Assembly (NCBI GenBank): GCA_008632985.1
Contig: QPGO01000193.1
Span: 62,001 to 126,000, forward strand
Direction: 5' to 3'
DNA length: 64,000 nucleotides
Source of the DNA: Psammoneis japonica
Lineage: Eukaryota
Numbering within the stretch: position 1 is the stretch's first letter; every line of letters begins with the position of its first letter. Both the position numbers and the translations under genes were made by a program. Shown here in pieces: positions 740 to 50,189 of this stretch. The notes under the pieces are model-generated. The model was given only the letters and a program-made list of their open reading frames with translations. It was not told the DNA's origin and did no database searches.

Positions 740-1150
740 AGGCCTGGCACCTGGCACCTCACCAGCCTTGAGCAAGGATCTTCAGGTCCCTTGTTGTTTG
801 AGAATGACAAGGCAGCAATCTTGTCTGATGATGTTGTACAACCCTTGGCACTGCTGGCCTGGCTTGTGCCACGATCAACCTTGAATGAGGTGCAAATGAC
901 CAAGTGCACCACCCCAAGCTTGTCAAAGCATCCAGCACTTGATCCACAAGTTTCAAGATTGAAGCAATGAAGGCAGCTGATGAAAGTCTTGTTCTGCTCA
1001 CACCCAACCCACCCAACACACAAAATTTTCTTTTCTTTCAAAGCAAGGAGCATTTTGCTCCATCCCTGTGGTGAGTTGGATGTTGGCCTGGCGAGCACTT
1101 TCTGCTCCACTTTTTTAGCACAACCATTGAATCTGATGTTTCATCAAGAT
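740..1150 (-). pseudogene. Fragment of SF2 helicase (HA-helicase family), motifs I-Ia region
   Basis: Frames give 'PQGWSKMLLALK', 'ILKLVDQVLDAL' and 'CTTSSDKIAA', matching 'PPGWGKTPLALK', 'PTLKLVDQVLD' and 'CTTSSDEIAA' of the copies at 11-13.7 kb and 23.7-26.4 kb; frameshifted. Confidence 0.75.
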
Positions 1151-1282
1151 GGCTGTTTGCCATTGACAGCTGACTTGGCTTTTTCTTGAAAAGCACTTGC
1201 GCTGCTGTTCCTGGTGTGTTGTCACTGATGGTTGTTCTGCCCCTCACATTTGCTTGATTTCTTTTTGACAACATTCCCATGG

Positions 1283-4200: not shown

Positions 4201-4929
4201 TGGGGGTGCTCATTTGTTCCACAGACTCTGATGCCAGAGTTCTGCGGCAACACTTTCTGCCCTTGCCTCTAAAAAAACCTTTGACAATTCTGACAAGCTG
4301 GCTCATGTCAGTCTTTTGTCAGATGCATTGCCACGTGGCTCTGCCTGTTGTTCTCTGGTGGCATCATTGTCTGTTGTGACTGGTGATTGTTCTGCAACCG
4401 GCTGCGGCATGGGCAAAGCTGGTTGCAGCAATTTTGAAGTTCCAACAGCTGCTCATGCATGCATTTCATGAATGGAAGCCTTTTGCTCATTCAACACGCA
4501 AATGCTTTGTTCATGTGTGCTTTTCTCCCATTGTGGGAATTTGTCCTGGCAGCTCTTCTTGATCTTCTGCTTGGCGGCATCCATTTTGAAAACAGTTTGG
4601 ACATTCCAAAAAATGTTTTGCCAACTGGCATCACAACCGAGCATGTGATGTGGCATCTTGCATCCACTGCATTCCAAACCAAGCACTTGAATGATTGAAA
4701 GGTTGATTTTGGGATCAACAAGATTGGCCTGCCTCTCCAGGGTCATGCTGTGCTTTGGAGCCACATTTTTGCATGCTTCCATGAGTGTCTCCATTCAACC
4801 TTGGTGCAACTGATGAACCTGACATGTTTCATGAAATCCAAAACATGAGCGTGCACTCAAATGCTGTTGGATCACATGTGCAAGGTTTGGCAGTCATTGT
4901 TGCAATGGGCGCAGCACTGCAAGATGATG
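1283..4929. repeat. Dispersed repeat block, copy 1 (unclassified)
   Basis: Collinear and highly similar to 13816-16608, from AGCAGGTTCTGAGCCAGTG to CAAGATGATG; this copy additionally has the MITE and ~540 bp (about 3946-4484) absent from copy 2. Confidence 0.9.
2829..3218. mobile_element. 390-bp MITE-like non-autonomous DNA transposon, 25-bp imperfect TIRs, 4-bp TSD (GCAA)
   Basis: Left end GACGCGTTCCAGCCCCAGGTGGGAC; right end reverse complement GACGCGTTCCAGGTCTAGGTGGGAC (22/25); GCAA at 2825-2828 and 3219-3222; the paralogous empty site at ~15421 reads AGAGTTGCAAATGGAAGA with a single GCAA. Confidence 0.92.
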
Positions 4930-6161
4930 CGTTGGTGGCACTCATCATGCATCATGGGGGTGCGCAAGTTTTGTGGTGGTTTGGTGGTTTGCAAAAGTCA
5001 GTTTTCAACAGGTCTCGCACAAAGGCCAGACAAACCACACTGAGCAGGGTTGCTTCTCAGATGAACTGATGGTGTTTGACCCAAGAAAGCCAACCCACCC
5101 ACCTCCTGCAGTGACCTTGCATTTTCAATCAAGTTTCCAGCCCTGCATTGGAGCCAACCATCACATTCTTGACAGCATGATGGATTCATTGTTGGGGCTG
5201 TTGACCATTTTGAGAAGCACTTCACAGGAGGCAGGTCTGCAGGCTGCTGGGGGACACGAACCTCTGCATGAGAAGATCCAGGTGCAAAGGCAAAGCAATG
5301 TGACAAAGACAGCTGTGTTCCAAAAAAAAATTTCTGCCATTGCTGATGTCACAGCATGTTTTTGTCTTGACAAAAAGTGTGAAAAATGGTGGAAAAGACC
5401 AGCTTTCCAAACATCCAAAAAACAGCCGTGGGCTCTTTGCACTCTGCAGAAATGGCACAACCAAATCTTTGGCACTCATGCAGATCAACTCAAAGGCAAA
5501 GATGGGCATGGTCATTTTGGTGTCAACGCCCCCCCCCCCCTTTTCACAGCAGCTAATTTTGTGGCATCCTTGAGCAGCAAGCAAAGGAAAAGTGGTGCAA
5601 TCTTCAGAAGAAACACATCTCATTCTCTTGCAACATGTGAAGCATCATTTGACCATTGTTGTCAACACCCCACCGTCTCTGCCATGAGTCAACATGTTGA
5701 CAGCACTGCTGCGCACACTTTGCAGGCTCATGATGGAGAGATCTCACTGCTGTTTGGGAGCTGATGTCAAGACTGGCTTTTCGTGGACTTTGTCAGCCAT
5801 CACACAATCACACAATGTCATGTCAATTGTGTTGGGTGCTGTGACACCTGAAAATTGTTGCTGCACAATGACCTCCAATGTGTTGGCATTCACAAGGGGG
5901 TGTGGGTGGCCATCAAAAAGTTGCAAATCCAGCCAGCAAAAGCCAAACAGGAGGTGCCGCCATCTGAGGTTGGCAGCACAGCTGTGAGATGTTGTGCAGA
6001 AATGCAAGTGGGAGGCAAAGTGGGCAACAAATGATGCAGAGTTGTGGCTCAACCAACCTTCCAGCCAACACATCATTTGGAGCTTCTTTGCTCTCCATGT
6101 GGAGGCAAAAAGTGCCTTTTTTGTGTGCATTGTGCTTTTGCATGCCCAGCTCATTGCATTT

Positions 6162-6168
6162 GCAACAA

Positions 6169-6203
<35 letters not shown>
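6162..6203. repeat. (CAA/CAG)n microsatellite
   Basis: GCAACAACAGCAACAGCAGCAGCAGCAGCAACAACAACAACA seen directly. Confidence 0.9.
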
Positions 6204-6206
<3 letters not shown>

Positions 6207-6931
6207 AAGACAAAAACAGTGTCGCGCTGAGCTGAGTGTGACCAACCAGCAGAGCTGAGCAAAACAAGTGCACACAACTCACAATTGCCAGAGGAGACAG
6301 AGAGAGAGAAAGCAAAGCAGAAAAAGTTTGAGGCAAAATTTCTCTGGGTTGTGTTCATTGTCCACCCTGCATCGACCCTTTCTGCGCACGCAGTTGTCCA
6401 TGTTTCCTCCTTGTTGCCAAAGGACTGAGAAAGACAATCAAATGCTGAAGACAGGAGCTCCTGCAAACAACCTGTGATGATTGCTTTGATGAGAGAGCAA
6501 ATGAATGACAAAGAATGACGCAAGTGAGAAGGCTGTAGAACAGGACTGAAAACCATGGTTGTCATCTGTCACAATGCCTGGGTCACCTCTGCGGCGGTTT
6601 CGGATTTTCAGGTGTGTCCTCGGTGTGAAAATTTCACAAGAACACTGAGTCAAACGTGTGTCCTGATCAAAAACAGCATCGCTTGCAGGGCCAGCCGCCA
6701 TCAGCACACCCAGTTTTCAGCATCACAGCAAACGGCGAAGGAAAATGCAAAGAGGTGTGTTGTGTGTCGTTGACAAGCCATTTCTGCAACTCTCTCTTTC
6801 GAGCAATTACATTGTTGAGACGAGTGTCATTGTTGGGGTTTTGTTCGACTGGTGCCGTGTTTTTTAAGAAAGGTTTAGACTTCATTGCTTAAAGCTGGAG
6901 TCTCTCACCAAGTTCCTTTCATTTCTCCTGC

Positions 6932-7812
6932 ATGACAACACAGAAGGCGATTTATGTCGCCACAGGGGAGACTGTGAGGTTGTGTTTGGGCCAGATGAAG
7001 CTGTGCACTGAAACCCCGAGCATGCCCAGCCACCAACATTCTGACGTGCACTGTCTTTTGAAAGCTGATGGATCAGAAGGACTCGATGATGCCTTCCCAG
7101 CTTCCATGGATTGTTTGCACAAAGAGTGCAATGCAACTTTGGATCTTGATGCTTCTGCTGATCGGTCAAACAACCTTGGTAAAATCTCTGAGGTGACCAT
7201 CAACAGCTCCTTGTTCGGAAAGAGTCTTGGTGATGCCTGTGGGTTGGAGAACGAAGAGGATGGTGCGCAAGTCACAGTGGCACCAAACAAGATGGTCAAC
7301 GAATGCGTGAAGCCACCCACGATGAACGCCACGGTGGCGATTAAAACTGCAGAGCCCACAACGAATCATGATGATCAATCCATCCCTGTGGCAAACCTTG
7401 TTCCTGTCCAACCAAGGCCGGTCACTCCTGACAAATCGCCCAGCAACAAGTGTCAGGCATCCAAAGCAACTCCACCCTCTGAAAAGCACAGTGGAGGACA
7501 CCTTTGCGGCAGGTGCCAAGTGAAAAAGAAAGGACACGACTGCCCGCACAAGCACAAAAAAAAACTCCAAGGAAGTGCAACCGCAAGCGCAAGAAGTCAA
7601 ATCCAACCAAGGATTGCCCAGTGAGGGGGGCTTGCTGGTGTCACGAGTGTGACACCCCAAAGAAAAACCACATTTGCATGCAACTCCGCCAAGGTGCTAG
7701 CCTCGAAAGCCAGATGCCCATTGTCGCACGAGCTTCTAAAGGTCAAAAGGCGATGGTGGCTTTTGGAAGCAGTCACATGCGACGTTTGCCACTCTCATGG
7801 TCTTGTGGTTGA
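6932..7812 (+). pseudogene. Degenerate gene with two CxxC-x-(K/P)K(K)-xHxC zinc-knuckle-like motifs
   Basis: 'GGHLCGRCQVKKKGHDCPHK' in the 6932-7624 frame and 'GACWCHECDTPKKNHIC' in the 7504-7812 frame; a frameshift separates them; lies in TA-depleted DNA. Confidence 0.5.
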
Positions 7813-8061
7813 CAGCACCCCGCTCATCGTTTTGTTTCGAAGATGACAGGATGTGCTGTCCAACAAAAATGAGAGAGGAAGACACATGCATGTGTTTTTG
7901 TTAAAGAATGCAATTGTCAATTTCTCCGTCACGGGCGTCAGGAAGATGAGGGACAAGGAGATTTCTCTGACGCCATGGCAGATCTGCCACGGCACAACAA
8001 GCAATCAAGAACACTGCCAATCCTGAGTTGAAGGCAGAAGTCTCTGAGCAATTCAACTGCA

Positions 8062-8304
8062 TCTCGATGCGCTCTCTCATCAGGCGAAAGCAACGCAAAT
8101 GCGAGAAGTTGGAAGACCACTTTGTTGTGCATGCTTGCAAATGCACGGTCATCGAATCGAAAGAAAAGACCTGCACTTTCCAAGGCAAGGCACACTCCTT
8201 TCGAATCCTCTGTGTGGCAGTGCATTCTCAAGCATGCACAACAAAGAGGTCTTTCAACTTCTCGCATTTGCGTCTCTTTCGCCTGCCGAGAGAGCGCATC
8301 GAGA
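8062..8304 (+). repeat. Long inverted repeat / hairpin (85-bp arms, 73-nt loop)
   Basis: 8062-8146 is the reverse complement of 8220-8304 with about 8 mismatches. Confidence 0.9.
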
Positions 8305-8898
8305 GGCGGCTGGGTTGCTTCAGTGCAAGAACGCCGCCACGCCGTGAAAAGAACAAGCTGCTCCACTGTTGTCATGTTGATTCTTTTGCATTAATGACAA
8401 ATGGACAAGCTTTCATTGGCAAACAGTGGCATCTTTGCTGCCGCTTTGATTGCTTTGTTTCGTGCTGACATTGTCGATTCAGTCGTGGGTGTGAGTCGTG
8501 CATGCCTCCACGTGCCGTTCGCTCCATGCCCATTGGCAGATGCGCACACAGTAAGCAGCAAAATTGGTCAGCTATGTCACAGGCACTCACTTGTGCACGT
8601 CTGATGACCGTGAATGAGAGCATACAAAGGATTCAATTCATTGATGTAGCTCTGGTTGCGTCACTTCGCTTCGACTTTAAGTTTCATTCAGTCGTGGATC
8701 AATCCGTCCATCCGCCACGTGCCAGTCGTGCGGCGAAGAAGAAGGAGTGGATCATGGGCATGACGCCTCACAGTGATTCACTTGTGCACGTCGGACGACC
8801 TTGATTGCACTCCTGATGATGTTTGGATTTCCACTGGTGGTGTTTGAAAGCCACATCTTAAAAAATTTGTGTCGTGACACGACGGGAGACAAAAAATC

Positions 8899-10394: not shown

Positions 10395-10785
10395 CTATCG
10401 AATTCTCCATCGAATGCCAATCCGAACTAAGCTTTTCTTGCGATCCTAAAATTCAGTTTTCTCGGCATTCCTCGAAAAACGCTGACGACTCAACCGCATT
10501 CCAAGGTTCTTTCCATCCTCGACATGCCTCGATGGAACGTCGCACCCCCCTCGCGTTTCTTGTTGGACGAAGAGCCGAAACATTTCTTCCCACTTTTCAG
10601 AAGGAACATCCCAAGCAACGCCAGCGTTTGTGAGGCGTTCCGCAAGAGCACTGTTGAGCTTCCTGGCATTCCTCAAAACACGCTGCCTGTTTAACCATGC
10701 ACCAAGGTTCTTTCCGTCCTCTGTCTGCATTTTGGGAACGTTGCAATACCCCCCCCCTCGCGTTTTTTATATTGTACTTTGAGCC
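10395..10785 (-). pseudogene. Truncated helicase-associated (HA) domain repeat gene end
   Basis: 'EDGKNLGAWLNRQR..LNSALAERLTNAGVAW..WEEMFRLFVQ'; ends like the 23678 copy; frameshifted. Confidence 0.8.
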
Positions 10786-11009
10786 GTTGCAAAAGAGCAC
10801 TGTTGACGGTGCTCCAGTGATGAAGGAAAGTGAGCAGAGGATCTCAGAGAGATCCAATCTCACTGTCTGCATGTACTAATGTCTTTCCCACTTTTTGGAA
10901 GTTGCGCGATGGCTTTCAACCATTTCATTGCAACTGTTTTTAGGCACTGGCACCAATGCGTGCCCGCGTCCTTTGCCCGGTGGAAGATTAATGACATGCA
11001 TCAGTTGCG

Positions 11010-13725
11010 TCATTGTCGAAAGCTCCACCGAACGCCCAAATCTTCCAAGCGCTTCTCATGGTCTCGTTTAAGTGTCGCCGTTTTCCTCGACCTGCGCTGC
11101 CAACTTAACCAATGTCCAAGATTCTTTCCGTCCTCCTTGTGCTTGAATGGAACATAACAACCCCCCTCGCGTTTCTTGTGTTGGACGAGAAGCTGAAACA
11201 TTTCGTCCCACTTTTCAGAAGCAACATTCCAAGAAACGCCAACGTCTTTGAGACGTTCCTCCAGAACACTGTCTAGCTTCCCGGCATTCCTCGCAGCACG
11301 CTGCCTGTTTGACCACTTTCCAAGGTTCTGTCCATCCTCTTTGTGCTCTCGTAGAACGTTGCAACCCCCCTCGCGTTCTTTACACTGAATGAGGAGTCGA
11401 AACATTGCTTCCCATCTTTCAGAACCAACATTCCAAGCAATGCCAATGTTTTTGAGACGTTCCTCAAGCGCGCTGTCGAGCTTTCCAGCTTTCCTCGTTT
11501 TACACTGCATGCTCATCCATGCTCCAAGGTTCTTGCCATCCTCTTTGTGTCTTTGTGGTGCGTCGCAACCCCCTCGCGTTTCCCACATTGGACGAGGAGT
11601 CGAAACATTGCTCCCCAATGTTCAGAAGGAACATCCCAAGCAACGTCAACGTTTTTGAGCCGTTCCTCAAGAGCACTGTTGAGCTTCCCCGCTTTTCTCA
11701 TTTTACACTGCCAGCTTGGCCACACTCCAAGGTTCTTTCCATCCTCGACATGTCTGGCTGGAACACTGCAGTCACCCTCTCTTTCTGTGCAAACCAAAAG
11801 CAATGCATGCATTTGATCCCAAAAGCTTTCGCGGTTCTTGCACTCCGTGATTGCTCGATTCATGATGTCGTTCTTCAATTCAAGCGGCATTGAGTCTGGG
11901 AGCATGAATGATTCAAGCACCCGAGAAGGAAATTCCACGTTGCACAAAGGCCTTCCGAGTCTAGCGCTCTTGTCAATTACAAACACGACATCCTCCCGCA
12001 ATTCGGGATCTAGTCCGACCATTGCATCGAGTGCCAATGTGAAAGATTCATGGCCACCTTCATCTTCCATAAATTCAGCATCACCAGTTGCAGGCAAGGG
12101 TGCCAAAACGTGTCCACGCTCTTTGCCAGGAGCCTTCTGGCTGACACGTCCAATCATTTGGCGCGCATCAACGGCACTTCAGACCGGATCTGCCATCACT
12201 GCTAACTCCCAATCTGCCTCGTCCATGCCGGTCGCCAATGCTCTGCAATTGGCGACAATTGATTTGGTTGCTCATTTTGCTCTTGACAAGATTTCTTCCC
12301 ACTTGGCAGGTGACATGTCCGAGCTGCCACTGACAGCAAATGCGGTGACATCGTCCTTTTGCGCACAAAAGCATGAGCACGGCAGTTCATGGAATGAAAC
12401 GACACAGCACTGCTCACATTGAGTTTGTGAAAAGCCACTTGAATTGCAAAATGGGAGTGGGTAGTTCTTTGAGAGTGCCCTCGGGATGGAATCATCAAGG
12501 AGCAGATCAGCAAGAACTGCGTCGATTTCATTGGCATCCAGTGCACAAAGTGTGATTGGAGCAGTGACATTTTGGTTCACGGCATCACTTGGCATCCGTT
12601 TCACGAGGCAACAAGGTTGCACTGTCAAAACTGCGGACACCAGTGGCCTTTTTGGGCTCTGAGCTTTTGTTGGGAATGAGCGTTTGCGAGCCATCCTCAC
12701 AAAGCTTGCCACTGACAATGTCAACTTGTTGTGGAGCACCCGTGTGTCAACGTGGAGCAGCAGTTAGAAACAAGTGACAATCAACTGGGATCAATGAGTC
12801 ACAGAGACCACATCCAGACAGTTTGCCAATCCCTTCCATCTCGTGCGCCTCATCAAATGCGGCAAACCCAATGGCAACACCTGGCTTCGACAGCGCCTCT
12901 CCAACCTCAGGCAATGACTTGTGAGTGCAGCCAATGAAGGACAAGCCATCATTTTTTGAGGACAGAAATGCCGCAATCTCGTCAGAAGATGTTGTGCAAT
13001 CCTCAGTGCGATTGGTCTGGCTCGCCACAATCAATCGTGAATGAGGCACGTGATCAAGCACCCCAAACTCATCCAGGTCATCCAACACTTGATCAACGAG
13101 TTTCAAAGTTGGTGTGGCACACACATGGCCGATTGAAGCATTTCTCTGCGCTTGGACCCATTCCATCCATTGCAAACTTTTTGATCGACTTGAGTGCAAG
13201 CAAAGTTTCGCCCCATCCCGGTGGCAGCTGGACGTTGGCCCGGCGACCACCTTCTGCCCTTCGAGATTTCTTGTTGTTGTGAATGTTCTTTCCACTTTTT
13301 CCTCCATCCCACTGTGCAGGCGCTCTGCAAAAGTGCCACGCAATCAAATCTGAAATGTCATCGTGACGATCATCTTGCTGTTGACACTCGTCTTGACAAT
13401 TTTCTGATGCACTTGCACTTGTTTCTGATGTTGTTTTATCTTCTGCTCTCAAACAGCTGCAACCTCTGTGTTCTTGACATCCTTTCTTGGAACGAGCTCT
13501 GTGATTGTCAAACTTGTCCCCTCCAATGTCCTCTGGGATTGCTTCGGCCTTTGCATTTGCTGCTGCATCATTCAAAGCCTTCGCTGCTGCCACCACGCTT
13601 GCTGCCTGATGCGTGGAGGCTGTCGTCACTCTTGAACGGCTTCTAAACAGCATGGATTGAAATTGAAAAGACCCACTAAACTGCTCCAGAGTGTAAACGA
13701 GAAAAATGCAGTGGCAGTTGTTCAT
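11010..13725 (-). pseudogene. SF2 (DEAH, Res-subunit-like) helicase with C-terminal HA-domain repeats, copy A
   Basis: Motifs QLPPGWGET (I), PTLKLVDQ (Ia), AAFDEAH (II), LFLTAAPR (III), QMIGRVSQ (VI), then ~4 'W..MF.LL...K.REG.C.VP..H.EDGKNLG.W...QR' repeats; several frameshifts and stops. Confidence 0.88.
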
Positions 13726-13815
13726 GGTTGGCATGTGATTGAAGGCACTGTCCCAGGCATCAATCAAGTTCAAAATTCGAAAAATGGTTGAACGCCGCAA
13801 GGCGCTTTCCACGCA

Positions 13816-16608
13816 GCAGGTTCTGAGCCAGTGCATGGGACAAGCACTTGAAATGTGTCTTCACTGCACTGCTGACATGTTGCTGCACCTTGGAAATGAA
13901 TGCGCAGGCATCACAAAAACAATGGTTGGGAAGCAGCCACTTGTGCAAGCAACCCCAAGCACCATCCACTCTGTTTTGAACAATTGTGGGACAGCACCCA
14001 CTGGAAGCACCAACAACAAGTGAGTGCATGACCAAGTGCAACAACTCATCAAAAATGGAGTTGCTTTTCAGTGCACTGCCACCTGACTGCACATTTTGAC
14101 ATCCTTTTCACAAGAGTCAAGCAAAAATGTGGGACACAAACAGTCTGTTCTCCATGTTGTTGCAGAGACTTTAGTTCTTGATGAGTTGAAGAAAATGCAA
14201 GATCTGCAACAAAGACAGCCCACTCAGCCAGAGCATCAAAACATGGTCTCTCAGGAGATTCTGAAACCAGACTTTCCTGGTGCAAAAGAAATTGATTCTG
14301 AAACCTGAAACAAGACTTTCCTGGTGCAAAAGAAGCTGCAATGCCATTGGCAAAAGTGGCAGACCATGTCGGCCAAGAAGTGCTCAATTTGCCAGAACAC
14401 ATGGTTGAATTGGAAGAGTGTCGAACAACTCATTTCATGCAAAGAGCTTTGCATTTCAAAAATGGCTTGGTGGGGATGTGATGTGGGGAGCACCATTGCC
14501 AAAGCAATTGACATCTCGCAGATGATGCAGCAATGGCTTGTAGAACCACTTGTTCACTTTCATTTGATGAGAGCCGTTTTGGCCAGTGATTGCTGCTGCA
14601 GCATTGTTGATTTTGCACATGATGTTTCATCATTCATCATTGGCTCTCCCCCCCCCCCCCCCCCCCCCCAACTTGCAATTTTGGAGCTGTCCTTTCCATG
14701 AGCAAGGGTCTGCTGTTGAGCCAAAATGCAGCACAACAGAAGCAACTCATTTGCATGAGATGTTGACAAGTCCAACTGAAGTGGCAGATGACCATCTTTG
14801 ATTCCAAGGTCAACGTCCAGCAACTTTCTTTTCTTGTTGTCATCTTTTCCACCATTGGCACTTGGTGGTTGCCTCCTCCCCATGAGGCACCCCCTTCTTT
14901 AGAAGCCAAATGTGCACCTTGGTGATGCCAATCATCAAATTCTGCACTCCAACTTGCTCTGCAACTTGTTGGACTGTCCGGGAGATCTGGTGATCCTTGT
15001 GGCTGCTTTGCAATGTCTGTTGGGGAAAAGTGATGTGTTGAACACTTTGAGAGAAATTTCTTGCAGATGGAGATCCATCTGATTGCTCTCAACCCAAGAT
15101 GGGTGAAGAAGGAATGGATCTTTCATTGACCCCACAAGAAGCAAACAAGAAGGATGCAGCATTGCAGGATGAGCTGAAACAGTGCTGCTCCGAAGACTGC
15201 AGCTTTGCTTCTGATGACTTGGGGTGTGCACACTGCTCTAGAAGAACTCGACAAGAAGGAGCTGGCATGCATGAAAGGTCAGCTGGAGTGCAAAAGATGG
15301 GAAGAAATCATGGCAGCACACCCAAAACCAATCAAAGGGGGTTTGAATGAACAAGGCATCAAAAGTTCACTGACTTGCACTGGGAAGACAAGCAATGCAA
15401 GCAATGGATCCAAAATGGCCAGAGTTGCAAATGGAAGAGCACAAGGCAAATCAACAGTCTGAGAGGGCCACAAAAAAAGCAAAGACTTTGAAGCAAAACT
15501 GAAAACCAAGGTCAATCATGATGTCTTCTTAGTTGGTCAACTGTCCATCCCCAGTTCATGTGCAAGTGTCCAATTGAGTGCAAGCAGCAACATGTTGATC
15601 CATCTGCAACTGTGCCACCCTCCCCTCTGTCCAGGGATGCCTCCTCTGCACACTCCGCATGATCATCTGATGTGCATCTGCTTGGCATGGGCCAACAGGA
15701 TTCACTCAATCCCAATCCCCTGGCCATCAGTTTTTCTAAAGCAGGGGTGCATTGACTCATTCTGGCAGCACACTTTAGATGTTGAAATGCTGCATGCTGT
15801 CCATCCAATGACTGTTCACAATTCTTCAATGACTTGTTCAGGGAATGCTTGGGGCTTTTGGATGGTTTCCTGTGACTCTTCTTGAAAGCATCAATGCATT
15901 TCCTCTCAATGGCAGACAAAAATGTAAACCATCCTTGCCCACAATCGATGGATGAAAGTGAAAATCATCATTGCTTCTTGTTTCATGCCCAGCAACAGCC
16001 TTGAACACTTGCATTCTTGCAGGCTTTGTGTTGTCCCCTGAATGCATGACCAACAGCAACTCCAGCTTTTTGGCAGGAAGGTTGGTTGCATTTTGTTGTC
16101 TGCCATCTGTCTTGGAAGGTTCAATTGTTCCATTCAATGCCAAGCACACAACATGCACACATGGCTCATTCAACACGCAAATGCTTTGTTCATGTGTGCT
16201 TTTCTCCCATTGTGGGAATTTACCCTGGCGGCTCTTCTGGATCTTCTGCTTGGCGACATCCATTTTGAAAAAAGTTTGGACATTCCAAAAAATGTTTTGC
16301 CAACTGGCATCACAACCGAGCATGTGATGTGGCATCTCGCATCCACTGCATTCCAAATCAAGCACTTGAATGATCAAAAGGTTGATTTTGGGATCAACAA
16401 GATTGACCTGCCTCTCCAGGGTCATGTTGTGCTTCGGAGCCACATTTTGCATGCTTCCGTGAGTGCCTCCATTCAACCTTGGTGCAATTGATGAACCTGA
16501 CATGTTTCATCAAATCCAAAACATGAGCATGCACTTAAATGCTGTTAGATCACATGTGCAAGGTTTGGCAGTCATTGTTGCAATGGGCACAGCACCACAA
16601 GATGATGG
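13816..16608. repeat. Dispersed repeat block, copy 2
   Basis: Collinear with 1283-4929; lacks the MITE; small internal duplication near 14257-14335. Confidence 0.9.
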
Positions 16609-16687
16609 GTTCACGTGTGGCACATTCAGCACATCAGTTCATGCCGCACTGTGCATCTTGGTTCACTGACTCATCTCGCTCTAATCG

Positions 16688-16990
16688 CCAACCCATCTTA
16701 CAAAAATCACCAACACATCTTCGGTCAGAGAACCTGTCCGGTGTGTCCTTGCATTTTTGCTGTCTTCAACAGGGGACTTGTGTGAGCAGTGCAGAGAGGC
16801 AGTGTTTTGGGCTTGGATTTTTGGGCACTCTTGGCGTGTCATGGTTTTCTGGCTCATCTTACTTCGATGGCCAACCCATCTTGCAAAAGTCGCCAATCCA
16901 TCTTGGGTCAAAAGACACGCCTGGTGCATCCTTGTGCTTTTGCTGTCTTCAACAGGGGAGGTTTGTGCAAGCAGCACAGAGAGGCAGCAG
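16688..16990. repeat. Imperfect direct repeat, 183-bp period
   Basis: CCAACCCATCTT..CAAAA..TTTTGCTGTCTTCAACAGGGGA..CAGAGAGGCAG begins at 16688 and 16871; the period is a multiple of 3, suggesting a former protein repeat. Confidence 0.75.
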
Positions 16991-19900
16991 TGTTGGGCCC
17001 AGCACTTCTCTTGGCTGCCCCTTCACTCAAGTGTCACCTGCAATCCACACAAGTGTGCCTTTTGAACCCCAAGGGCTGCAAAAACAAAGTGCCCACATGC
17101 TTGAAAACACATGCCTGCACTCTCCAGCTGTTTTTGAGCAGCATTTGTTTTTTTGCTCCCCTTGCTTGCTGCCTGTCTTCTTTCAGAATTTTCTCCCTCA
17201 ACAAGAAACAAGGCTGCACACTCAATCTCGTGGAAAATGACTCCCTTGTCAGCATTGCTGTGTCTGCCAAGCCTGCAGACTTGGTCAGCAGAAGCTGTGC
17301 ACATGCAGCACTGTTCATGCACTGTGCTTCCTTCCATTGTGATGTCCAGAGGTTTGGCTCATGAAGAGGTGCTTGCCCCCTTGTGAGTGCCTCCAGCCAG
17401 CTGCTGTGCCAGTTTTCCAGCTGCACAGCTTGCCATGCTTTCCTGTGCATTTGTGCATGTTGTCTAAACTCAAGCAAACAATGCTTGTTGCTGTCAAGCT
17501 CCAACCCAGCAATGGCAGCTTGTGTGCCATGCACTTGTGTCAGAGACAGCCCAGCATGCCACATTGACCACACAAGATGGTTTGGAGAACACCAGAGTGG
17601 GAGCACATTGTGCTCCAAATTGTGGCAGGCTCAGTCCTCAACTGTTTGAGCACTGTGCTCTTCTTTTGCAACATGTTTTTTCAATGACAGGGGGCATTGA
17701 GCATTGAGGATGACCCCCATTTCCACTGGGACCACCCACATGGCCTCAAAGTGGCTGTCCAAGGCAAGCAACAGTGATGGCAAATCCATGTGTTGCCTGC
17801 TTCCCTTCCACACTTGATTGATGCATTTGAGCAGGGTCTTGATTTGCTGGTCAGAAATGCACTTTTGATCACTCCAAACCCAATGTGGTGTGATGTGATG
17901 TGGTTGTCACAAATGGCAAACCAATTGCTTTTGCCACAACTGAGCACAACAGTGTTGGCAGAGCTCAACATTGGGGCCAAAGATGATGTGTTCTGTGCCT
18001 GCCACACCTTGTGCCATCATCGCTGGACAGTCAGTTTGCAACTTTTTTGTTGCAAAAGATGTCAATGAAGGACTGTCCTGTGCTCAGGCTGCTGATGATT
18101 TTCTGAATTGTCCCTGCAATCTGGGCTTGTTGCAGTCCCAAGTTGAGTGTTTGGACATTTGTTCTCAGCCACAGTGCTCATGATTGCAGCTGCACATGTT
18201 GACACAACTGTCCCAAATTGGTGTCATGACAGTGCCACCCAACAAGCAACAGCACAAACTGGCTGGCAAACAGTGCCCAATGCTTCTCCTTTGCCTTTGC
18301 CAAGGACAGAACATGGAAAATTTTGCCAGGGCAATGCCACACACCCAACTGCATCCACAGACAAGGTGCTCATGTGGTTTGTGCTGGTGATGCCTGCTGC
18401 TGTGTGGAATTTGAGCTGCCTGTCTGACTTGCAGCAAACACCCCTTGGCATGGCCTGTTCCAACTCCAGGTGATCTGCAATCCATCATGCAAGATGCCAG
18501 CCAAGTGTCGCATGTTTGGCACAACAAACTTCTTCAATCTTGATCATTTCAAAAATTGACAGGTGAGTGCACACAAAAATGAAAAGTTTTGTGTGCACTC
18601 ACCCTTTGATTTTGTAAAAAAATGCGCAAACAGGCCAGAGATGGACTGCACCCCCTTTTTGGACACCTGGAGCTGGCACAGGCCACACATCTCTGCACAC
18701 TGACAAAGGTGTCACAGATGGGCTGGTTGTTGCATGGGATCTGCCTTGGGTCTGCTGCTCCATCCAGTCACTTGTGCTGGATGTGTCTCTGCTGGTCAGC
18801 TTTGTTCCTCTTTGTGCCACCCACATGTTCACAATGCAAAATTGGGGCAACATGCTCTTGGCAGCATTTCCCACTGGCACAGGGAGCTCATTGTGTCATT
18901 GATGTGCTTCTCTTGCTCTGATGACTTGTTTGATGCCTCATGCATCCATTTTGGGGCAACCTGAAGCACAGCACCCCTTTCCTGCATTTGAAGGAGACAG
19001 TGTGACATGCAGCTCTCCCTCCACCACTTTTGTTTGAGCCACGCTCATGTGACATTTGACAACAAGGCATCAGGGGGTCAACCATGGAGACCAGCGCACC
19101 CTGCCAACTGCGCCAAGTGCACAAAGACTGCAAAAGCAAGCATGTTTCCCAGGAGGGCAGCAGCTCCACTGAAGCACTGCTGCTTGGGGCATTTCATGTG
19201 AAAGCCACTTCCAAGATGAGTGCTTGGGTCAGCATTGTGAGTGTTGTTAAGATCAACAGCTGCCAAAGGATTTCCCCCTGCTGCCTGCAGCTGGGGTGCT
19301 CCAACATTGTTGCCAGACAATGAACTTGTTGATGCATTTGAGCACAGAGTTCCAACAAATGCACACAGCAAAAGCGTGCAGTCCTCCAGGACTTTGATCT
19401 CTTTGCTCACATGATTGCAGCACTCACCTCATTTTGTGAATGGGTTGAGCGAGCCAAAGCTGCTGAAGGCAGATTTCAAGAGATCATTTTGAAAGCCAAT
19501 GCACCAAAGAAGAAGAGCACCTGGGAGTGAGGTTGATGAGTCACCAGCACAGCTCAAAATCCCACATGTTGCACAGTGTGAATTGCTGTGGTCGTTTGGC
19601 CAAAGAATCTTGCACCCCACTGTGTCAAGCCATCAATCAAGGGGCTCATCAATCAAATTGTTGTCAAGAATTTGAACAAGGGAAAGAAGACCAAATGCAA
19701 GGTTCTGACAAAAGATGCAAGCCAATTCAAGTTGTTGGCACTCTCAAAAGCTTCTGACAGCAAAGACAAGGAGGGGCACTGCATTGTCTGAGATGAAGGA
19801 TGGCATGACAGTCCTGAATTTTTTGCACCTTGGATGAATGTCTCAATGCCACTTTTCAATTCTCTGTGGACCTCGTGATGCATGGGCCAACCCAGAAAAT

Positions 19901-21760
19901 GGCAAAACTCAAACATGTTGCTTGTGCCAACATTGTTTGCAGCAACTTGTTCCACACCCGTGGGACAAAATTTTTTGTCCCAGCATTTTCTCCATCCATT
20001 GAACTCAAGTTAATTGTCGTTTCCATTGTTGTTTTCATGTTTGGACATGCATTTCTTGGTGCAAAAGCTGGTGTGTCATTTGAGCACAAAATGTTGATGT
20101 TCATCTTTGTCAGCAACTTCAGAAGAATGACTCAGCTCAACACATTTCAACCCCTGCTGCAGACACAAACCCATGCACAATGCAAAAGTTTGAACAGGAC
20201 AGAAGATTCCGGAAATTGTTGCTGAAAGTCACAACTCCATGGTGTCCACATGCGGCCCCAGCATGTGCGCATCTGTCTGTCTGTCACTTTTTTGCACCAT
20301 GTTGCCCTGGTCCATTCAGATGTGTCACCTCCATTTGCACAAGGCATTGATCTCTGTGCAATGTTGTCCAAACTGCAGGTCAAAAATCTGTCTGAGGGCT
20401 TGCAATGCCATCGCAGCAGACAGAGCTGCCACGGTCAAAAAAGCCCATGCTCACTTGCACTCATTTGAGTGGAAGAGATTGTCACTCATTTTGGCATTCT
20501 TCACAATTAAAAAAATTGTCTGAACAGGGCAATCACACAAAACTGCATGGGGTGGAATCTTTCCTGGATCTTTGGGCTTTCTCCATCTGCACATTGTCTC
20601 TCCAACGTGCCAGCTCCAACACACTCCTGAGCCCAAGGAACAGGAACATGCACTGAACCCACTTGATTGCCAGTTTCCACAATCAATGATGCCTCAAGAT
20701 GAATCTTGCTTGTGTTGCTTTGCATTGCTGCTCCTGCGGGTCATGGGGAGGTCACCCCCACTCTTCAGCATGGTGTCGAGGCAGCTCCATTGCCATTGAT
20801 TGGAGAGGAAAGTCATCACATGTGGCAGAGACCTGGCAAGATCATGCATGTGGCATTGTTTGCAAGTGGCAACAAAAAAGAAATGTTTGTCATCAAGTGC
20901 CACAGGATTGGCACAAGGCAAGCATGTGCAAAGTGACAGCAAAAATGAGAAAAAAGCTTGCATTGGCTGGCAATTTGATCCAAATTTTTGCCCATTTCAG
21001 AGCACTGTCTGCAGACAATTTTCTTGAACAAACTTCAATGCGTGCAGCCTCTGACATGCATCACACCCTTTGACATTGACTGAGCCAAGGCGCGGGATTG
21101 TGCCCCCCCCCCCCCCCAAGTTGTCTCCCTTGAAAGCTGTCTCCAACAATGCTTTGGTGCTTGTCGCAGGCAGGGTTTCTGATTCTTGCATGCCCCCAAG
21201 GTGAATCCATGTGACAATGTGTGCAACAGGAGTTGGACCTGGTTGCTGCTTGGATGGAACAAGAAGTGTGAACATGTTTGTCAGCAAGCAAACTGGGTGG
21301 GCCACAAGCTCAACACACGGCGATTTGGAAGACCGCTGCACTCTGTGCAGTGTTCTCTGGCACATTCTGGCAACGACATCCATGTTGCACAACAACACCT
21401 GCACAAATCATGCTCGTGTGTGCTGGCTTGGATGCAAACAGCTGCTTCTTGGATGGTCCTTCTCCACACAGAGACCAGGTCCAGTCACATTCAACATGGT
21501 CCAAAATGGCTTGTCCTGTTTTCCACCGCGCGCACGATCTCGACCGCCACGTTTCATGTCCACGTCGTGCTGTTTTCGCAATAACGTGCTTTGTGATACG
21601 GCGACGAGGCGACGACGACTCCTGCCAGTAGCTACTGCTAGCTAGAGTAGCACCAGCACATGCATCTAATGTATCACGACCGAGACGATGACGCGCCGGT
21701 TAGGAGTTCGGTTTCGACGTCCTTTGTGGGATCGAAAGCCCGCAGTCATGACGGCCTCGA

Positions 21761-22918
21761 ATGATGATGGGTGGGGGTTCGGTTCGCACCATCTTTCCAC
21801 AAACACAGCAAGTCGATCGTGTTAACCGAAGAACAATGAGAGTGGTACCTTATTCTATAAATCCGGTTCCTCCCCCGGATGATAACGCTGCGGTATCCGG
21901 CACAAATTCGGTCATACCTAAACAGTTTGGAGACTGGGAATCGAAGCTGGGAAGGGAGTTAAAAATTCCCGAGCAAAAAGAGTCTGAACCACGAGATCTT
22001 GCGAAAAAAGATTGTGTCTATTCTCCCTACGCTGCTGGATTTCTTTCCTTTGTGGCGGGATGGTCCTACTCTGACTTACATACCTTTAAAGACATTATGG
22101 AGCGTGCCGGTATTAAGGCGAAGACCTGCTACCAGATTTCCGTGAAGAACGACCCCATGTTTATCGTATCCACTACGCAGGTGATCCGCAGCGACAATGG
22201 AGAGATTGCCATTGTCTGCTTTCGCGGTACGGAGCTCACAAACACCGTCAACTGGCTGACGGACGCATCCGCCAAAACTCTCGAGTATAATCCGCCCGGT
22301 TGTCATGATGGGGAGCATCTTGATGTCCATGGTGGCTTCTTACGGAATTTCCAGGCTGTGTGGCCCGTGGTTGTCAAATGCTTGAAGTCCGACGACGACA
22401 AGAAGCCAGAGGAGGATACCATGAGGAAGCCCAAGCTAAAAGCGCTTTACATAACAGGGCGTAGTCTTGGCGGTGCAATGGCAGTTCTCGCTCCCATGAG
22501 TATCTACTACGAGAAAGATCAGCTGCTCTGGGAAAGTTTGCGGGGTGTTTACACCTACGGTCAGCCCATGGCGTTTAAGAAGGAGGGTGATGCGTTGGCA
22601 AAAGCTGCTTTTTCGCAGCCAATTTTTCGTCACGTCTACGAGAGAGACGTTGTCCCTCGTTTGCCACCGATAACCGCGGGTATCTTTGAGCACGTTGGTG
22701 CTGAACGTAAATGTACAGGGAAAGAGTGGGACGACAAAGAGGATGATTCCGCCCAGATTTATACCCTGTTTCTTGCAGCACCGTTTGCCCTGGTTGACTT
22801 TGTGTTGGAGCAACTTCCTCTCGGCAAGTGGGTGAAAATGCCATGGTCATTTGGAGATCACAGTCCCTGGGGCTACATAAACACACTTAATAAGACCGAG
22901 AAAACTGGTAGTGGATAA
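21761..22918 (+). CDS. Class 3 lipase (start may be a downstream Met)
   Basis: 'IVCFRGTE..NWLTD', 'VHGGF', 'YITGRSLGGAMA', 'VYTYGQP', 'DVVPRLPP', 'GDH'; uninterrupted 385-aa ORF. Confidence 0.9.
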   Translation: MMMGGGSVRTIFPQTQQVDRVNRRTMRVVPYSINPVPPPDDNAAVSGTNSVIPKQFGDWESKLGRELKIPEQKESEPRDLAKKDCVYSPYAAGFLSFVAGWSYSDLHTFKDIMERAGIKAKTCYQISVKNDPMFIVSTTQVIRSDNGEIAIVCFRGTELTNTVNWLTDASAKTLEYNPPGCHDGEHLDVHGGFLRNFQAVWPVVVKCLKSDDDKKPEEDTMRKPKLKALYITGRSLGGAMAVLAPMSIYYEKDQLLWESLRGVYTYGQPMAFKKEGDALAKAAFSQPIFRHVYERDVVPRLPPITAGIFEHVGAERKCTGKEWDDKEDDSAQIYTLFLAAPFALVDFVLEQLPLGKWVKMPWSFGDHSPWGYINTLNKTEKTGSG

Positions 22919-23677
22919 GGTCGAGCTGACAGCGTCGAATTGGTCGTTCGGGCTTTGCGCTCAACCATCGTCTTTACATGTTCGAGGTTGCATAAGACGT
23001 TTCTTCACTTTGTTTTCTCCCCTTTTCCGGTAAGACCAAACATCGCGGAAGCATCATAGAGGGAGAAGCTTCTATCTATTCATTACACGTGTCTTCAGGC
23101 CTCTATCTCTTTTCATGTGTTTGTATGATAACATGTCCTCATTTACATGTTTAGTTTTATCCTTGAATGCTTGACTTTGGCAGTACATTATTTATTGTAG
23201 CGGTGCAGCCTCTCGCCTTATTTATCTGACAGGAAAACTATTGAAATTCTGTTGTACAATAGCCTTTTCTACGTGCTCTAAAATCGCGAGAGAACCATCA
23301 ATGTCTGAGTGTGAATGGAGTGTCTATGGATAGCGACAAGAACCGACAAGTAGTGTTGAGGGAGCGCATGATTACTACAAGTTTTGCAGTCATTGCATTG
23401 GTTCTGAGGATGACTTGTTGGCAAAGTAAAAAATGGAGTAACTGAAATCCTCGAATCATAATAAAAAGCGGCGACTTATCGAACTGGCAACTATTGATAT
23501 TCGCTCTCCCAGCATAATCATCAGCGACTCACGTCTTTTGTTAGTATCGTCGGAACATACACGACGCAAGGGAAACAAGATTACCGTTTGTTGAGCTTTC
23601 AAAGATAGGCGACCCGACAGGGTGCTGGCATTACAAAGATTCAGTGAGGGTAGAAACAATATTTCAATTACAATGAC

Positions 23678-26401
23678 CTATCGAATGCTCCACCGAATGC
23701 CAATCTGATCCAAGCGTTTCTCACGATCATGATCCAGTTCCCCGGCTTTTCTCACTGTGCGTTGTCTCTGCAACCACGCTCCAAGTTTCATCCCATCCAA
23801 CATGTGCCTTCTTGGAACGTCGCAATGTCCCTCGCTTTTCTTGTGTTGGACGAGGAGTCGAAACATTGCTTCCCAGTATTCAGAAGCAACATTCCAAGAA
23901 ACGCCAACGTCTTTGAGCCGTTCCTCAAGAGCACTGTTGAGCTTCCCGGCATTCCTCAAATAACGCTGCTTAGCCAACCACAATCCAAGGTTCTTTCCAT
24001 CCTCCACATGGCTGCGTCGAACGTTGCAATCCCCCTCACGTTCTTTGAATTGAACAAGAAGTCGATACATTGTTTCCCAGTTTTCTAAAGCAACATTCCA
24101 AGCAACGCGAACCTCTTTGAGACGTTCCTCAAGAACACTGTCGAGCTTCCCGGCTTTCCTCTTTTTACGCTGCGCACTTAACCATGCTCCAAGGTTCTTT
24201 CCATCCTCTTTGTGTCTTTGTGGCACGTCACAACCCCCCTCGCGTTTCTTACATTGGACGAGGAGTCGAAACATTGCTTCCCAACGTTCAGAAGGAACAT
24301 CCCAAGCAACGTCAACGTTTTTGAGCCGTTCCTCAAGAGCACTGTCGAGCTTCCCCGCTTTTCTCATTTTACGCTGCCAGCTCAGCCACACTCCAAGGTT
24401 CTTTCCATTCTCCACATGTCGTTGTGGAACATGACAATCACCTTCTCTTTCTTTATAGACCAAAAGCCATTCATGCATTCGGCCCCAATTGCTTTCACGA
24501 TTCTTGCATTCCGTGATTGCTCAATTCATGACATCGTTCTTCAACTCAAGCGGCATTGAGTCTGGGAGCATGAACGATTCAAGCACTCGAGAAGGAAATT
24601 CTACGTCATGCAAAGGCCTTCCGAGTCTGGCGCTCTCGTCAATTACAAACACGACATCCTCCCGTAATTCGGGATCCAATCCGACCATTGCATTGAGTGC
24701 CAATGTGAAAGATTCACAGCCACCTTCATCTTCCATAAATCCAGCATCACCAGTCACAGGCGAGGGCACCAAAACGCGTCCACGCTCTTTGCCAGGAGCC
24801 TTCCGGCCAACACGTCCAATCATTTGGTGCACATCAACGGTGCTTCGGACAGGATCTGCCATCACTGCCAACTCCCAATCTGCCTCGTCCACGCCAGTCA
24901 CCAATGCTCTACAATTGGCAACAATTGATTTGGTCACTCATTTTGCTCTTGACAAGATTTCTTCCCGCTTGGCAGGTGACATGTCCGAGCTGCCACCAAC
25001 TGCAAATGCGGTGATGTCGTCCTTCTCGAGAGCTGGTGCTGCGTCACGCACAAAAGCACGAGCACGGCAGTTCATGGAATGGAATGACATGGCGCTGCTC
25101 ACATTGAGTTTGTGAAAAGCCACTTGAATTGCAAATGGGAGCAGGTGGTCCTTCGAGAGTGCCGGCGGGATGGAATCATCAAGGAGTGCATCAGCAAGGA
25201 CGGCGTCGATTTCGTCGGCATCCAACACACAAAGTGTGATTGGAACGGCGATGTTTTGGTTCACGGCATCACTCAGCATCTTTTTTGCAAGGCATGGTCC
25301 AAACAGGGTCGCATTGTTAAAACTGCGGACACCAGCAGCCTTTTTGGGCTCTGAGCTTTTGCTGGGAATGAGCGTTTGCGAGCCATCCTCACAAAGCTCA
25401 CTGTCGACAATGTCAACCTGTTGTGGAGCGCCCATGTGTCAACGTGGAGTTGCAGTTAGAAACAAGCGACAGTCAACTGGGAGCCGCGAATCACAGAGAC
25501 CACACCCAGACAGTTTGCCAATCCCTTCCATCTTGTGCGCCTCATCAAATGCAGCAAACTGAGTGGCAACACCTGGCTACGACAGCGCCTCTCCAACCTT
25601 GGGCAAAGACTTGCAAGTACAGCCAATGAAGGATGAGCCGTCATTTTTGGAGGATGGAAATGCAGCAATCTCGTCAGAAGATGTTGTGCAATCCTCGGTG
25701 CGATTGGTCTGGCTCGCCACAATCAATCGCGAATGAGGCACGTGATCAAGGACTCCGAATCGATCCAAGCCATCCAGGACTTGATCAACGAGTTTCAAAG
25801 TTGGCGCAACATGTGCAGCCGATTGAAGCATTTCTCTGCTCGGACCCATTCCGTCCATGGCAAAGTTTTCGATCGACTTGAGTGCGAGTGGCGTTTTGCC
25901 CCACCCCGGCGGAAGCTGGACGTTGGCCCGGCGACCACCTTCTGCCCTTCGAGATTTCTTGTTGTTGTGAGTGTTTTTTCCACTTTTTCCTCCATCCAAC
26001 TGTGCAGGAGCTCTGCAAAAGCACTCTGCAATCGAATCTAAAATGTCATCGTGACGATCATCTTGCTGTTGACACTTGTCTCAACAATTTTCTGATGCAC
26101 TTGCACTTCCCTCTGATGCTGTTTTCTCTGCTGCTCTCAAATGATCTCCTTTTTCTCGACATCCTTTCGTCGGACGAGCTCTGTGATTGTCACATTTCTG
26201 ACTTGTGTCCTCTAGGATTGCTTCAACCCTTGCATCGACTGCTGCATCATTCAAAGCCTCAACTGCTGCATGCGCGCTTGTCTGATGCTTGGACGCTGTC
26301 GCCACTCTTGAGCGGCTTCTAAATTGTGCGGATTGAAACTGAAAAGACCCACCAAACTGTTCCAGAATCAAAACGAGGAAAATGTAGCGGCAGCTGTACA
26401 T
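23678..26401 (-). pseudogene. SF2 helicase with C-terminal HA-domain repeats, copy B (least degraded)
   Basis: QLPPGWGKT, HVAPTLKLVDQ, AAFDEAH, LTATPR-like, QMIGRVGR, then four HA repeats open from 24478 to 23678; in-frame TGA at 24938-24940 and frameshifts in the helicase part. Confidence 0.9.
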
Positions 26402-49612: not shown

Positions 49613-50189
49613 TTATTCACGGGCAACACGGACGGATGGCGGATGGACGCCAGCCTCAAGGGGCGCTCGCGCGAGCGACAGCGGCTTGACGCATGGCCAT
49701 GGCGCAGTGTGTTTTGTTGGCTTGCCGCTTGTCATTCACCGTTTGCTTGACCAGCTAACTCTCAAATGAGAGATGCAATCACACCACATTCTCCATGTCC
49801 TGCCACTGGTGCACCTTTGTGGCTTCACTCAATTTCAATCAATGCGAGTCGTCAGCCCAAAAAGAGCTGCTGCGAGATCGCCGACTCAGCAGCTGAGCTC
49901 CGCAGCAGCAGAGATTCTGAATGACACAGCTGTCAACACATGAGTTGAATAAATCATGCAGGGCATTGATCAAAAGTGGGATAAATCTGGCTGTGCAGCT
50001 GACCATCTGGACAGAAGGTGAGATGATTGCCGAGCAAAAGGCCTGAGAGAACACAGGGGCAACACATTTTTTGCAACGAGGTCAATCACAAACACAGAAA
50101 ACCAAGGTGACTGTCAGCAGCAAGACAATTGTCATGACAAAGTGCAGGATGCAATTGTTTGCTGCTTTTGAAATGTTCAAACACCATCC

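Follow-up and report, generated by a model that had tools for sequence, protein, structure and literature searches.

To our knowledge, hypermutation of a eukaryote's own chromosomal DNA at the dinucleotide TpA had not been described before the 2026 preprint on the chlorarachniophyte Bigelowiella natans. According to the main text of that preprint, 230 of 231 mutations found in two integrated viral regions of mutation-accumulation lines were A>G or T>C, and all AT-to-GC mutations in the viral insertions, which consist of giant-virus and virophage DNA, fell on TpA; an ADAT2-like DNA adenine deaminase was proposed as a candidate, and neither CpG nor helicases are mentioned there (Mettrop et al., bioRxiv 10.64898/2026.01.13.699255). 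Here, we describe a stretch of 64,000 nucleotides from Psammoneis japonica (contig QPGO01000193.1, positions 62,001 to 126,000, forward strand; the window in the following), about 36-45% of which is affected by a TpA-erasing process. Among the affected sequences are dead copies of a helicase gene that have lost nearly all of their conserved tyrosines.

As in B. natans, so far as the preprint's main text goes, the changes in the window are transitions confined to TpA that yield TpG or CpA and affect both strands, and they lie in discrete domains beside normal DNA. The A>G or T>C changes indeed fall on TpA: 26 of 39 double differences between two helicase copies polarise to TpA, 19 of 21 replaced tyrosines became Cys or His, and TpA drops from 42.8 to 3.8 per kb. 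Whereas the targets in B. natans are viral, the identifiable targets here are paralogs of a host-type helicase family, and the other domains hold 77 open reading frames (ORFs) without a Pfam match above threshold. Erasure here is near saturation, with an observed/expected ratio (O/E) of 0.0-0.15, in contrast to a Rho of 0.45 for the nucleocytoplasmic large DNA virus insert of B. natans. In addition, CpG decay co-occurs here and a preference for a 3' neighbour, T-A-Y, is seen that the main text of the preprint does not report. The process is known here from sequence comparison, whereas de novo mutations were seen in the B. natans lines, and the organism differs in having intron-poor genes with uninterrupted ORFs of 450-650 aa.

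Repeat-induced point mutation (RIP) of ascomycetes, which is confined to duplicated sequences, shares with the process described here the dinucleotide-specific transitions on both strands, the independent course in each copy, the sharp edges and the inactivation of genes. Its direction is the opposite: RIP makes TpA from CpA/TpG and creates TAA and TAG stops, whereas here TpA disappears together with TAA and TAG, and genes are damaged by the loss of Tyr. C>T changes at CpA that create TpA are not what the affected DNA records (TpA O/E 0.0-0.15, ApT ~0.9) and, unlike the hosts of RIP, the organism is not a fungus. The process here is not RIP. Decay of methylated repeats by deamination of 5-methylcytosine in CpG leads to the same end products, TpG and CpA, in the same domains, but it starts from CpG and not from TpA, and in the helicase copies A and B it is ~4 times slower. 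Full-text literature searches for TpA hypermutation in diatoms and other stramenopiles led to no report other than the B. natans preprint. The window carries the same signature as B. natans, saturated, in an apparently unrelated diatom-like genome and on duplicated genes of cellular type.

Conserved tyrosines in the helicase copies

Five sequences in the window are related to one helicase family:

Copy B, 23678..26401, minus strand: full-length pseudogene of a ResIII-type superfamily 2 (SF2) helicase with four C-terminal HA repeats; TpA O/E 0.15
Copy A, 11010..13730, minus strand: paralog of B; TpA O/E 0.11
Copy E, 49773..51311, plus strand: older, helicase-only pseudogene with stops and frameshifts; TpA O/E 0.06, CpG O/E 0.36
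Fragment C, 10450..10800, minus strand: final HA repeats of another copy; 5 TpA in 341 nt
Weak helicase remnant, 784..1089, minus strand: 29-53% identity in tblastn against the intact family member P0001

Over 2750 nt, the nucleotide identity between A (11016-13730) and B (23681-26406) is 84%; E (50205-51263) shares 70-71% with each of the two. Collapsed to purines and pyrimidines, A and B are 94% identical, hence two thirds of their divergence are transitions. From 26413 to 23678, B keeps one frame without any frameshift and has five internal stops (four TGA, one TAG); relative to B, A has six frameshifting and three in-frame indels, and stops are present as well. None of the copies A, B and E has the intact ORF of a functional helicase, since all are interrupted by internal stops and A and E are also frameshifted.

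Remnants of the family motifs are still legible in the copies (PPGWGKT, FDEAH, TATPR and the four HA repeats), and in B both PPGWGKT, which is Walker A-like (GxGKT), and FDEAH, a DEAH-type motif II, stand in frame. A, B and E can be aligned end to end with the intact members P0001-P0011, and the intact homologs aligned to the copies carry the domains PF04851, PF00270, PF00271 and PF03457. A fragment of B scored 18 bits against Pfam ResIII, under the cut-off of 22.5, and 18 bits against Helicase_C (cut-off 23.5), a domain that the aligned homologs have as PF00271. Residues 100-620 of B are 46-56% identical over 87-99% to four PF04851 proteins, three of which also have PF00270, and with the motifs in frame and this alignment B belongs to the helicase core family. 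The HA repeats (PF03457) gave 201 bits in four matched stretches for the B ORF at 23678-24520 and 118 bits in three stretches for A. Judged from their sequences, A, B, E and the fragments at 10450-10800 and 784-1089 are in all probability paralogs, no longer functional, of a ResIII-type SF2 helicase whose C-terminus carries HA repeats, and they lie in a nuclear genome. Compared to ResIII/DEAD-like SF2 helicases with HA repeats (Pfam PF04851, PF00270, PF00271, PF03457), the copies are pseudogenes in which nearly all conserved Tyr are gone, including the Tyr of the motif T-Y-x-S. The family is very large, with 17,394 library proteins at E<=0.001 in an exhaustive search; the one close relative that is named belongs to the diatom Pseudo-nitzschia multistriata. 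A metagenome scan for relatives gave three loci, two of which are intact homologs with a normal TpA O/E of 0.61 and 0.67, and no further hypermutated copies.

The original prediction had rested on the codons at two conserved aromatic positions, and its readings are correct. The Tyr of T-Y-x-S is replaced by His in copy A (CAC at 12921-12923, minus strand, in IGCTHKSLP), by Cys in copy B (TGC at 25613-25615, minus strand, in IGCTCKSLP) and by Cys in copy E (TGC at 50580-50582, plus strand, in VCCTCRSSS). The Tyr of the HA repeats had been said to be kept once, and this is repeat 1 of B, where TAT is found at 24455-24457 of the minus strand in LLVYKEREG, the only conserved HA-repeat Tyr that is still TAT; the aligned codon of A, 11789-11791 of the minus strand, is TGC (Cys, LLVCTEREG). 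The readings CKKREG, HKKREG and CKEREG reported for the sister repeats are there as well, all codons being read on the minus strand:

Sister HA repeats of B, minus strand: QCKKREG, TGT at 24251-24253; QFKEREG, TTC at 24047-24049; QHKKSEG, CAC at 23843-23845
Sister HA repeats of A, minus strand: QCKEREG, TGT at 11382-11384; QHKKREG, CAC at 11178-11180; QCGKREG, frameshifted

That the helicase site was ancestrally Tyr is borne out by all nine close intact homologs covering it, which read T-Y. The HA position is typically aromatic, as had been assumed: of the 918 repeats in 156 family proteins, 889 have Phe or Tyr there, 8 have His and 1 has Cys. The Tyr of the close homologs together with this survey supports TAY, and not the Arg codon CGY, as the ancestral codon at the named sites. 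Intact homologs with His, Cys or Arg at the helicase Tyr would argue otherwise; there are none among the close ones, and a few among the distant ones (His 4, Arg 5, with Tyr in 63 of 81 in a rough alignment). Low-Tyr proteins among the 156 family members were considered as hypermutated relatives and rejected, their HA position being simply Phe.

Three sites are Tyr in every close homolog compared, namely T-Y-x-S (9/9), R-G-Y (11/11) and a third (10/10), and in B and A they are now Cys and His, Arg and His, and Cys and His, respectively. Where the same codon is His in A and Cys in B, one transition in each copy leads there from TAC, whereas a route from CGC needs at least four. At the R-G-Y Tyr, codon 546, B has CGC and A has CAC, hence an Arg intermediate does exist at this site. 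Tyr has the only sense codon family that begins with TA; TAY turns into Cys as TGY and into His as CAY. Both replacements destroy a TpA.

The fate of consensus Tyr codons in comparison to other codons, which the original prediction had named as a check, bears this out. A and E were threaded onto the reading frame of B, which was aligned with 11 intact homologs, and a column was taken as conserved at >=80% agreement among at least six of the 11 (226 columns); a looser set used a 50% consensus. With A and B pooled, Tyr is kept at 1 of 12 positions and the other residues at 378 of 435 (Fisher p=5e-9); at 50% consensus the counts are 1/22 and 623/868 (p=9e-11). Of the 21 Tyr changed in the looser set, 13 became Cys, 6 His, 1 Arg and 1 Phe. 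Taken separately on the 80% columns, B retains a single Tyr out of 6, A none out of 6 and E none out of 4, with two of the E sites lying beyond reliable alignment; at the 50% threshold E reads H, C, F and C at its consensus-Tyr sites up to codon 500. Other residue classes are kept at ~85-90% (Phe 21/23, Asn 8/10 and Lys 9/12 are examples from A and B). Little Tyr is left: it makes up 0.66% of the protein in B and 0.34% in A, against 1.55-3.41% in the 11 homologs.

Domains of TpA erasure

The cause is wider than the original prediction and wider than the helicase copies: it is a domain-wide, TpA-specific hypermutation. Divided into 128 bins of 500 nt, the 64-kb window has 46 bins with <=3 TpA, in 13 runs, and 67 bins with >=10, whereas none of the 200 shuffles that served as null gave a bin with <=3 TpA, the lowest bin having 13-25. 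The bins with <=3 TpA have a TG+CA O/E of 1.5-2.1. The depleted domains, given without strand, are as follows:

TpA-depleted domains: 1-2500; 3501-8500; ~10450-21550; 23680-26500; 43000-44520; 49620-51560; 56350-62500
1..8400: TpA-erased domain that includes a repeat, X, and is broken by an unmutated 394-bp insertion
10450..21550: largest TpA-erased domain, 0-6 TpA per 500 nt, with fragment C, copy A, a repeat, Y, and 5 kb of unidentified DNA; CpG nearly gone in 14001-21500
43000..44520: isolated island between intact genes, 2 TpA in 1.5 kb, CpG almost gone
56350..62500: TpA-poor domain, 0-8 TpA per 500 nt

When 28.4 kb of depleted DNA were compared with 28.1 kb of normal DNA, TA was found at 3.8 versus 42.8 per kb, CG at 21.6 versus 52.3 and TG+CA at 214.5 versus 150.4, and the combined loss of TpA and CpG (69.7 per kb) is about balanced by the gain of TG+CA (64 per kb). 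The edges are sharp, with no TpA in bin 21001-21500 and 20 in bin 21501-22000, where a lipase gene starts. TAA and TAG occur at 1.7 and 1.2 per kb in the depleted domains, versus 8.0 and 7.8 in normal DNA; the many long, overlapping ORFs on both strands of these domains (for example in 11000-21500) are composition artefacts that arise because TAA and TAG have been erased. Non-coding and unidentifiable DNA is erased equally, which argues against selection on a protein. CpG O/E is uneven (0.7-0.85 in A and B, 0.36 in E, 0.0-0.3 across 14001-21500) whereas the loss of TpA is uniform, and the erasure of TpA is therefore faster than CpG decay, or earlier.

TG and CA are gained about equally, hence both strands are affected. 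The survival of TpA depends on its neighbours: with gene-rich DNA as the baseline, depleted over normal counts are 5/372 for RTAY (0.013), 61/175 for YTAR (0.34) and 43/654 for the mixed class (0.066). If A is edited independently on each strand, with T-A-Y preferred ~4 times over T-A-R, the mixed class is predicted at 0.067, as observed within 0.001. The largest trinucleotide gain is that of TGC. By its footprint, the preferred target would be 5'-T-A-Y-3', which is the Tyr codon itself.

The comparison of A with B separates the loss of TpA from that of CpG. The pyrimidine-purine states of the two copies, A given first and B second, pair as follows:

TG/TG 201; CA/CA 159; CG/CG 79; CA/TG 39; CA/CG 36
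CG/TG 35; TA/TG 11; CA/TA 10; TA/TA 6

The 39 adjacent CA/TG double differences are the mark of a dinucleotide that is highly mutable and was lost in A and in B separately. From the residues of the homologs, 26 of them trace back to TpA and 6 to CpG, with 7 neither or tied, and they occur in all three codon phases. Single differences of TA against TG or CA number 21 and those of CG against TG or CA 71, the latter to be seen against 79 shared CG; altogether A and B differ by 279 transitions and 118 transversions. A two-lineage model fitted to the state-pair counts gives a loss per lineage of ~0.8 per TpA, 0.31 per CpG and ~0.03 per site for other transitions, so that TpA decays at ~28 times the background and ~4 times as fast as CpG.

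CpG decay (depletion, gain of TpG and CpA, a CG ancestor) was indeed found, as a second, separate process and not at the named Tyr sites. TGA stops with CGA retained in the sister copy are present in B at 24521-24523 and in A at B codon 523; the TGA of B at 26081-26083, where A and E have CAA, probably derives from CGA as well. The TGA stops of B at codons 325 and 492 are without a clear ancestor, and the single TAG arose by transversion. The earlier exclusion of CpG decay thus holds for the named Tyr sites and not for the copies as a whole, in which it operates elsewhere. Two processes are overlaid: TpA erasure removes Tyr, and CpG decay gives Arg to Cys or His changes and TGA stops.

The affected DNA is in part visibly repeated:

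Repeats X and Y, 1274-4933 and 13806-16611, without strand: 93% identical, 96-99% as purine/pyrimidine; 20 CA/TG steps
MITE-like insertion (miniature inverted-repeat transposable element), 2825..3219, without strand: 394 bp, in X and absent from Y at 15431, with ~25-bp terminal inverted repeats and a short duplicated flank

X and Y each lie upstream of a helicase copy and have no recognisable coding content. A self-comparison collapsed to purines and pyrimidines revealed no more within-window repeats for 16.6-21.5 kb, 5-8.4 kb and 43-44.5 kb. The islands of B and E lie between intact, TpA-normal genes, and their limits match those of the family homology within ~100-250 nt; around B, TpA is sparse only in 23680-26500. 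The contigs of the source run were also consulted; they are probably from the assembly's own sample, so that this local check is not independent of the assembly, and one of 2046 nt agrees with 16566-18611 of the window with a single difference. The summed depth of these contigs, which is not a copy number, is 48-62 in 7 of 7 bins with TpA O/E >=0.5 that lie wholly outside the copies and >90 in 16 of 20 bins with TpA O/E <=0.25 (Spearman rho -0.47, p=0.008). This pattern fits a link of TpA erasure with repeated DNA.

The window also encodes ordinary cellular proteins in uninterrupted ORFs of intron-poor genes: a class 3 lipase, a methyltransferase, a sterol-glucosyltransferase-like enzyme, an MFS (major facilitator superfamily) transporter and two NosD/beta-helix proteins. 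The 602-aa intact glycosyltransferase ORF has at best <=53% identity to a database protein, so that an annotated reference genome such as that of B. natans is not the source of the window; this ORF and the diatom relative of the helicase family are the grounds on which the genome is called diatom-like. TpA is mildly under-represented even in these intact genes (O/E ~0.45-0.9). The NosD/right-handed beta-helix paralogs, 47695-49356 on the plus strand and 54008-55378 on the minus strand, flank copy E and the MFS transporter gene and have normal TpA; this gene pair is duplicated, yet not hypermutated. Smaller repeats were seen as well. The island at 43000-44520 has a 112-bp unit twice, at 43438-43657. 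A tandem array of ~15 copies of a 42-bp unit (60327-60951, 86% matches) lies within a 629-aa ORF (59565-61454) without a Pfam match in the TpA-poor domain, and an inverted repeat with arms of 105 nt (8047-8151 and 8215-8319, 86% complementary, 63 nt spacing) marks the edge of a TpA-depleted domain.

Origin of the TpA loss

As a whole, the data are best explained by a TpA-specific, A-to-G hypermutation of both strands that, overlaid by CpG decay, erased the conserved Tyr; we put the probability of this explanation at roughly 80%. The comparisons described above establish the pattern and its polarity, and they also show that it is organised in domains and arose independently in the copies. TpA would have become TpG or CpA by A-to-G on one strand or the other, the process would have run in A and B independently after their duplication and close to saturation, and the change of conserved Tyr to Cys or His would be its consequence, with ordinary CpG decay superimposed.

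Since CpG decay does operate in the copies, the variable Cys and His sites might come from methylated Arg codons, CGY giving TGY or CAY depending on the strand. The 71 single differences of CG against TG or CA, the six of 39 CA/TG steps that polarise to CpG, the TGA stops with CGA in the sister copy, the CpG O/E of 0.0-0.3 in 14001-21500 and the CGC of B at the conserved R-G-Y Tyr are all in line with it. As the origin of the changes at the named Tyr sites this is refuted, and as an account of the whole it is close to untenable: those sites are Tyr in 9/9 and 11/11 close homologs, 26 of the 39 double sites lead back to TpA, a model of CpG decay alone predicts ~8 CA/TG sites where 39 are observed, and CpG decay is unable to remove TpA, which yet fell from 42.8 to 3.8 per kb. 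Neutral decay of pseudogenes with a high transition bias is highly improbable. Transitions do dominate (279 versus 118), and His and Cys, transition neighbours of Tyr, are its only transition-accessible replacements, but neutral decay should not spare 87% of the other conserved residues while leaving one Tyr in 12, nor should it proceed at TpA at ~28 times the rate of other transitions and leave 0-2 TpA per 500 nt beside genes with ~20. Selection against TpA or UpA, for RNA stability or the avoidance of nucleases or restriction, could account for the mildly low TpA seen everywhere, including the O/E of ~0.45-0.9 in intact genes of the window; as a substitute for mutation it is practically untenable, for the erased DNA consists of pseudogenes with stops and frameshifts and of unidentifiable DNA, invariant residues of catalytic motifs are destroyed and the intact neighbour genes are unaffected.

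Modified thymines that favour TpA are found in some protists, and for these a full-text literature search found nothing. If thymine at TpA of silenced DNA were modified by a TET/JBP-type enzyme to 5-hydroxymethyluracil or a base-J-like product, mispairing with G would give T-to-C; T-to-C on one strand is A-to-G on the other, the footprint is strand-symmetric and the preferred T-A-Y reads R-T-A on the opposite strand, all of which this route would accommodate. We regard it as unlikely, the sole experimental precedent, as far as its main text goes, proposing adenine deamination with ADAT2 as candidate. ADAR-like A-to-I editing of double-stranded RNA, with the edited sequence entering the gene copies by reverse transcription or by gene conversion from cDNA, is very unlikely. 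The island of B comprises the coding region and ~100 nt upstream and ends 10-30 nt from the stop codon, with the homologous 3' flank spared, and both strands are affected, as expected of double-stranded RNA; a spliced transcript or one containing the 3'-UTR, however, would not stop at the stop codon. Moreover, two segmental repeats and DNA that is unidentifiable and probably outside genes lie within contiguous depleted domains of 8-11 kb, A and B were changed independently in place after duplication, and the mutations of B. natans, according to the preprint's main text, arose in chromosomal DNA during clonal growth.

Several observations weigh against hypermutation by adenine deamination, or against its link to repeats. 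From the sequence footprint alone, adenine deamination and the thymine-modification route are indistinguishable. The 3' flanks of B (23320-23677) and fragment C (10020-10447) are homologous (66% identical over 339 nt) and spared, with 22 TpA for B and 21 for C (per 428 nt) against 3 and 5 in the adjoining coding parts, the TpA-poor state of both starting 10-30 nt from the stop codon. With respect to RIP, in which mutation is co-extensive with duplication, the islands of B and E agree with the homology, yet this common flank does not; that a duplicated flank is spared is hard to reconcile fully with a simple trigger that, as in RIP, depends on homology. At >=90% similarity, four of the 20 bins with strong depletion appear to be present in one copy. 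The 394-bp insertion in a depleted domain is untouched, with ~30 TpA (normal density) and many CpG; it either escaped or was exempt from hypermutation, or arrived later. Among 40 of the 209 differences between window and source-run contigs, 2 are of the TpA type and 15 of the CpG type, which is no direct sign of ongoing activity. The context survivals have gene-rich DNA as their baseline, and the base before the Tyr codon, with 8 Cys and 3 His after R and 6 Cys and 3 His after Y, offers too few sites. The 77 ORFs of >=110 aa in the other depleted domains gave no Pfam match above threshold, and two sub-threshold hits are at chance level.

Significance of TpA erasure

By analogy with the proposal made for B. 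natans, the agent would be an enzyme that acts on DNA, most likely an ADAT/TadA-type adenine deaminase, and its target would be repeated or silenced DNA, in a genome defence that resembles a mirror image of fungal RIP. For annotation, the depleted domains call for caution: they yield long spurious ORFs because only TGA stops are left. If confirmed genome-wide, the finding would provide a practical marker, the loss of Tyr to Cys or His together with the absence of TAA and TAG in six frames and CA/TG double differences between paralogs, and a sharper motif, T-A-Y, with which candidate deaminases could be tested. It would also show how TpA erasure relates to the decay of methylated CpG, and it would extend TpA hypermutation across lineages.

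A broader picture, which we offer only tentatively and hold to be somewhat less probable than not, is that of a diatom-like stramenopile with a dedicated DNA-editing defence, in which a deaminase would strip repeated or silenced DNA of its TpA by attacking the adenine of T-A-Y on both strands. Such a defence would kill duplicated genes via the loss of Tyr and not via stops, and would act before and together with CpG methylation; taken with B. natans, it may be an old and widespread defence of the SAR (stramenopiles, alveolates and Rhizaria) lineage.

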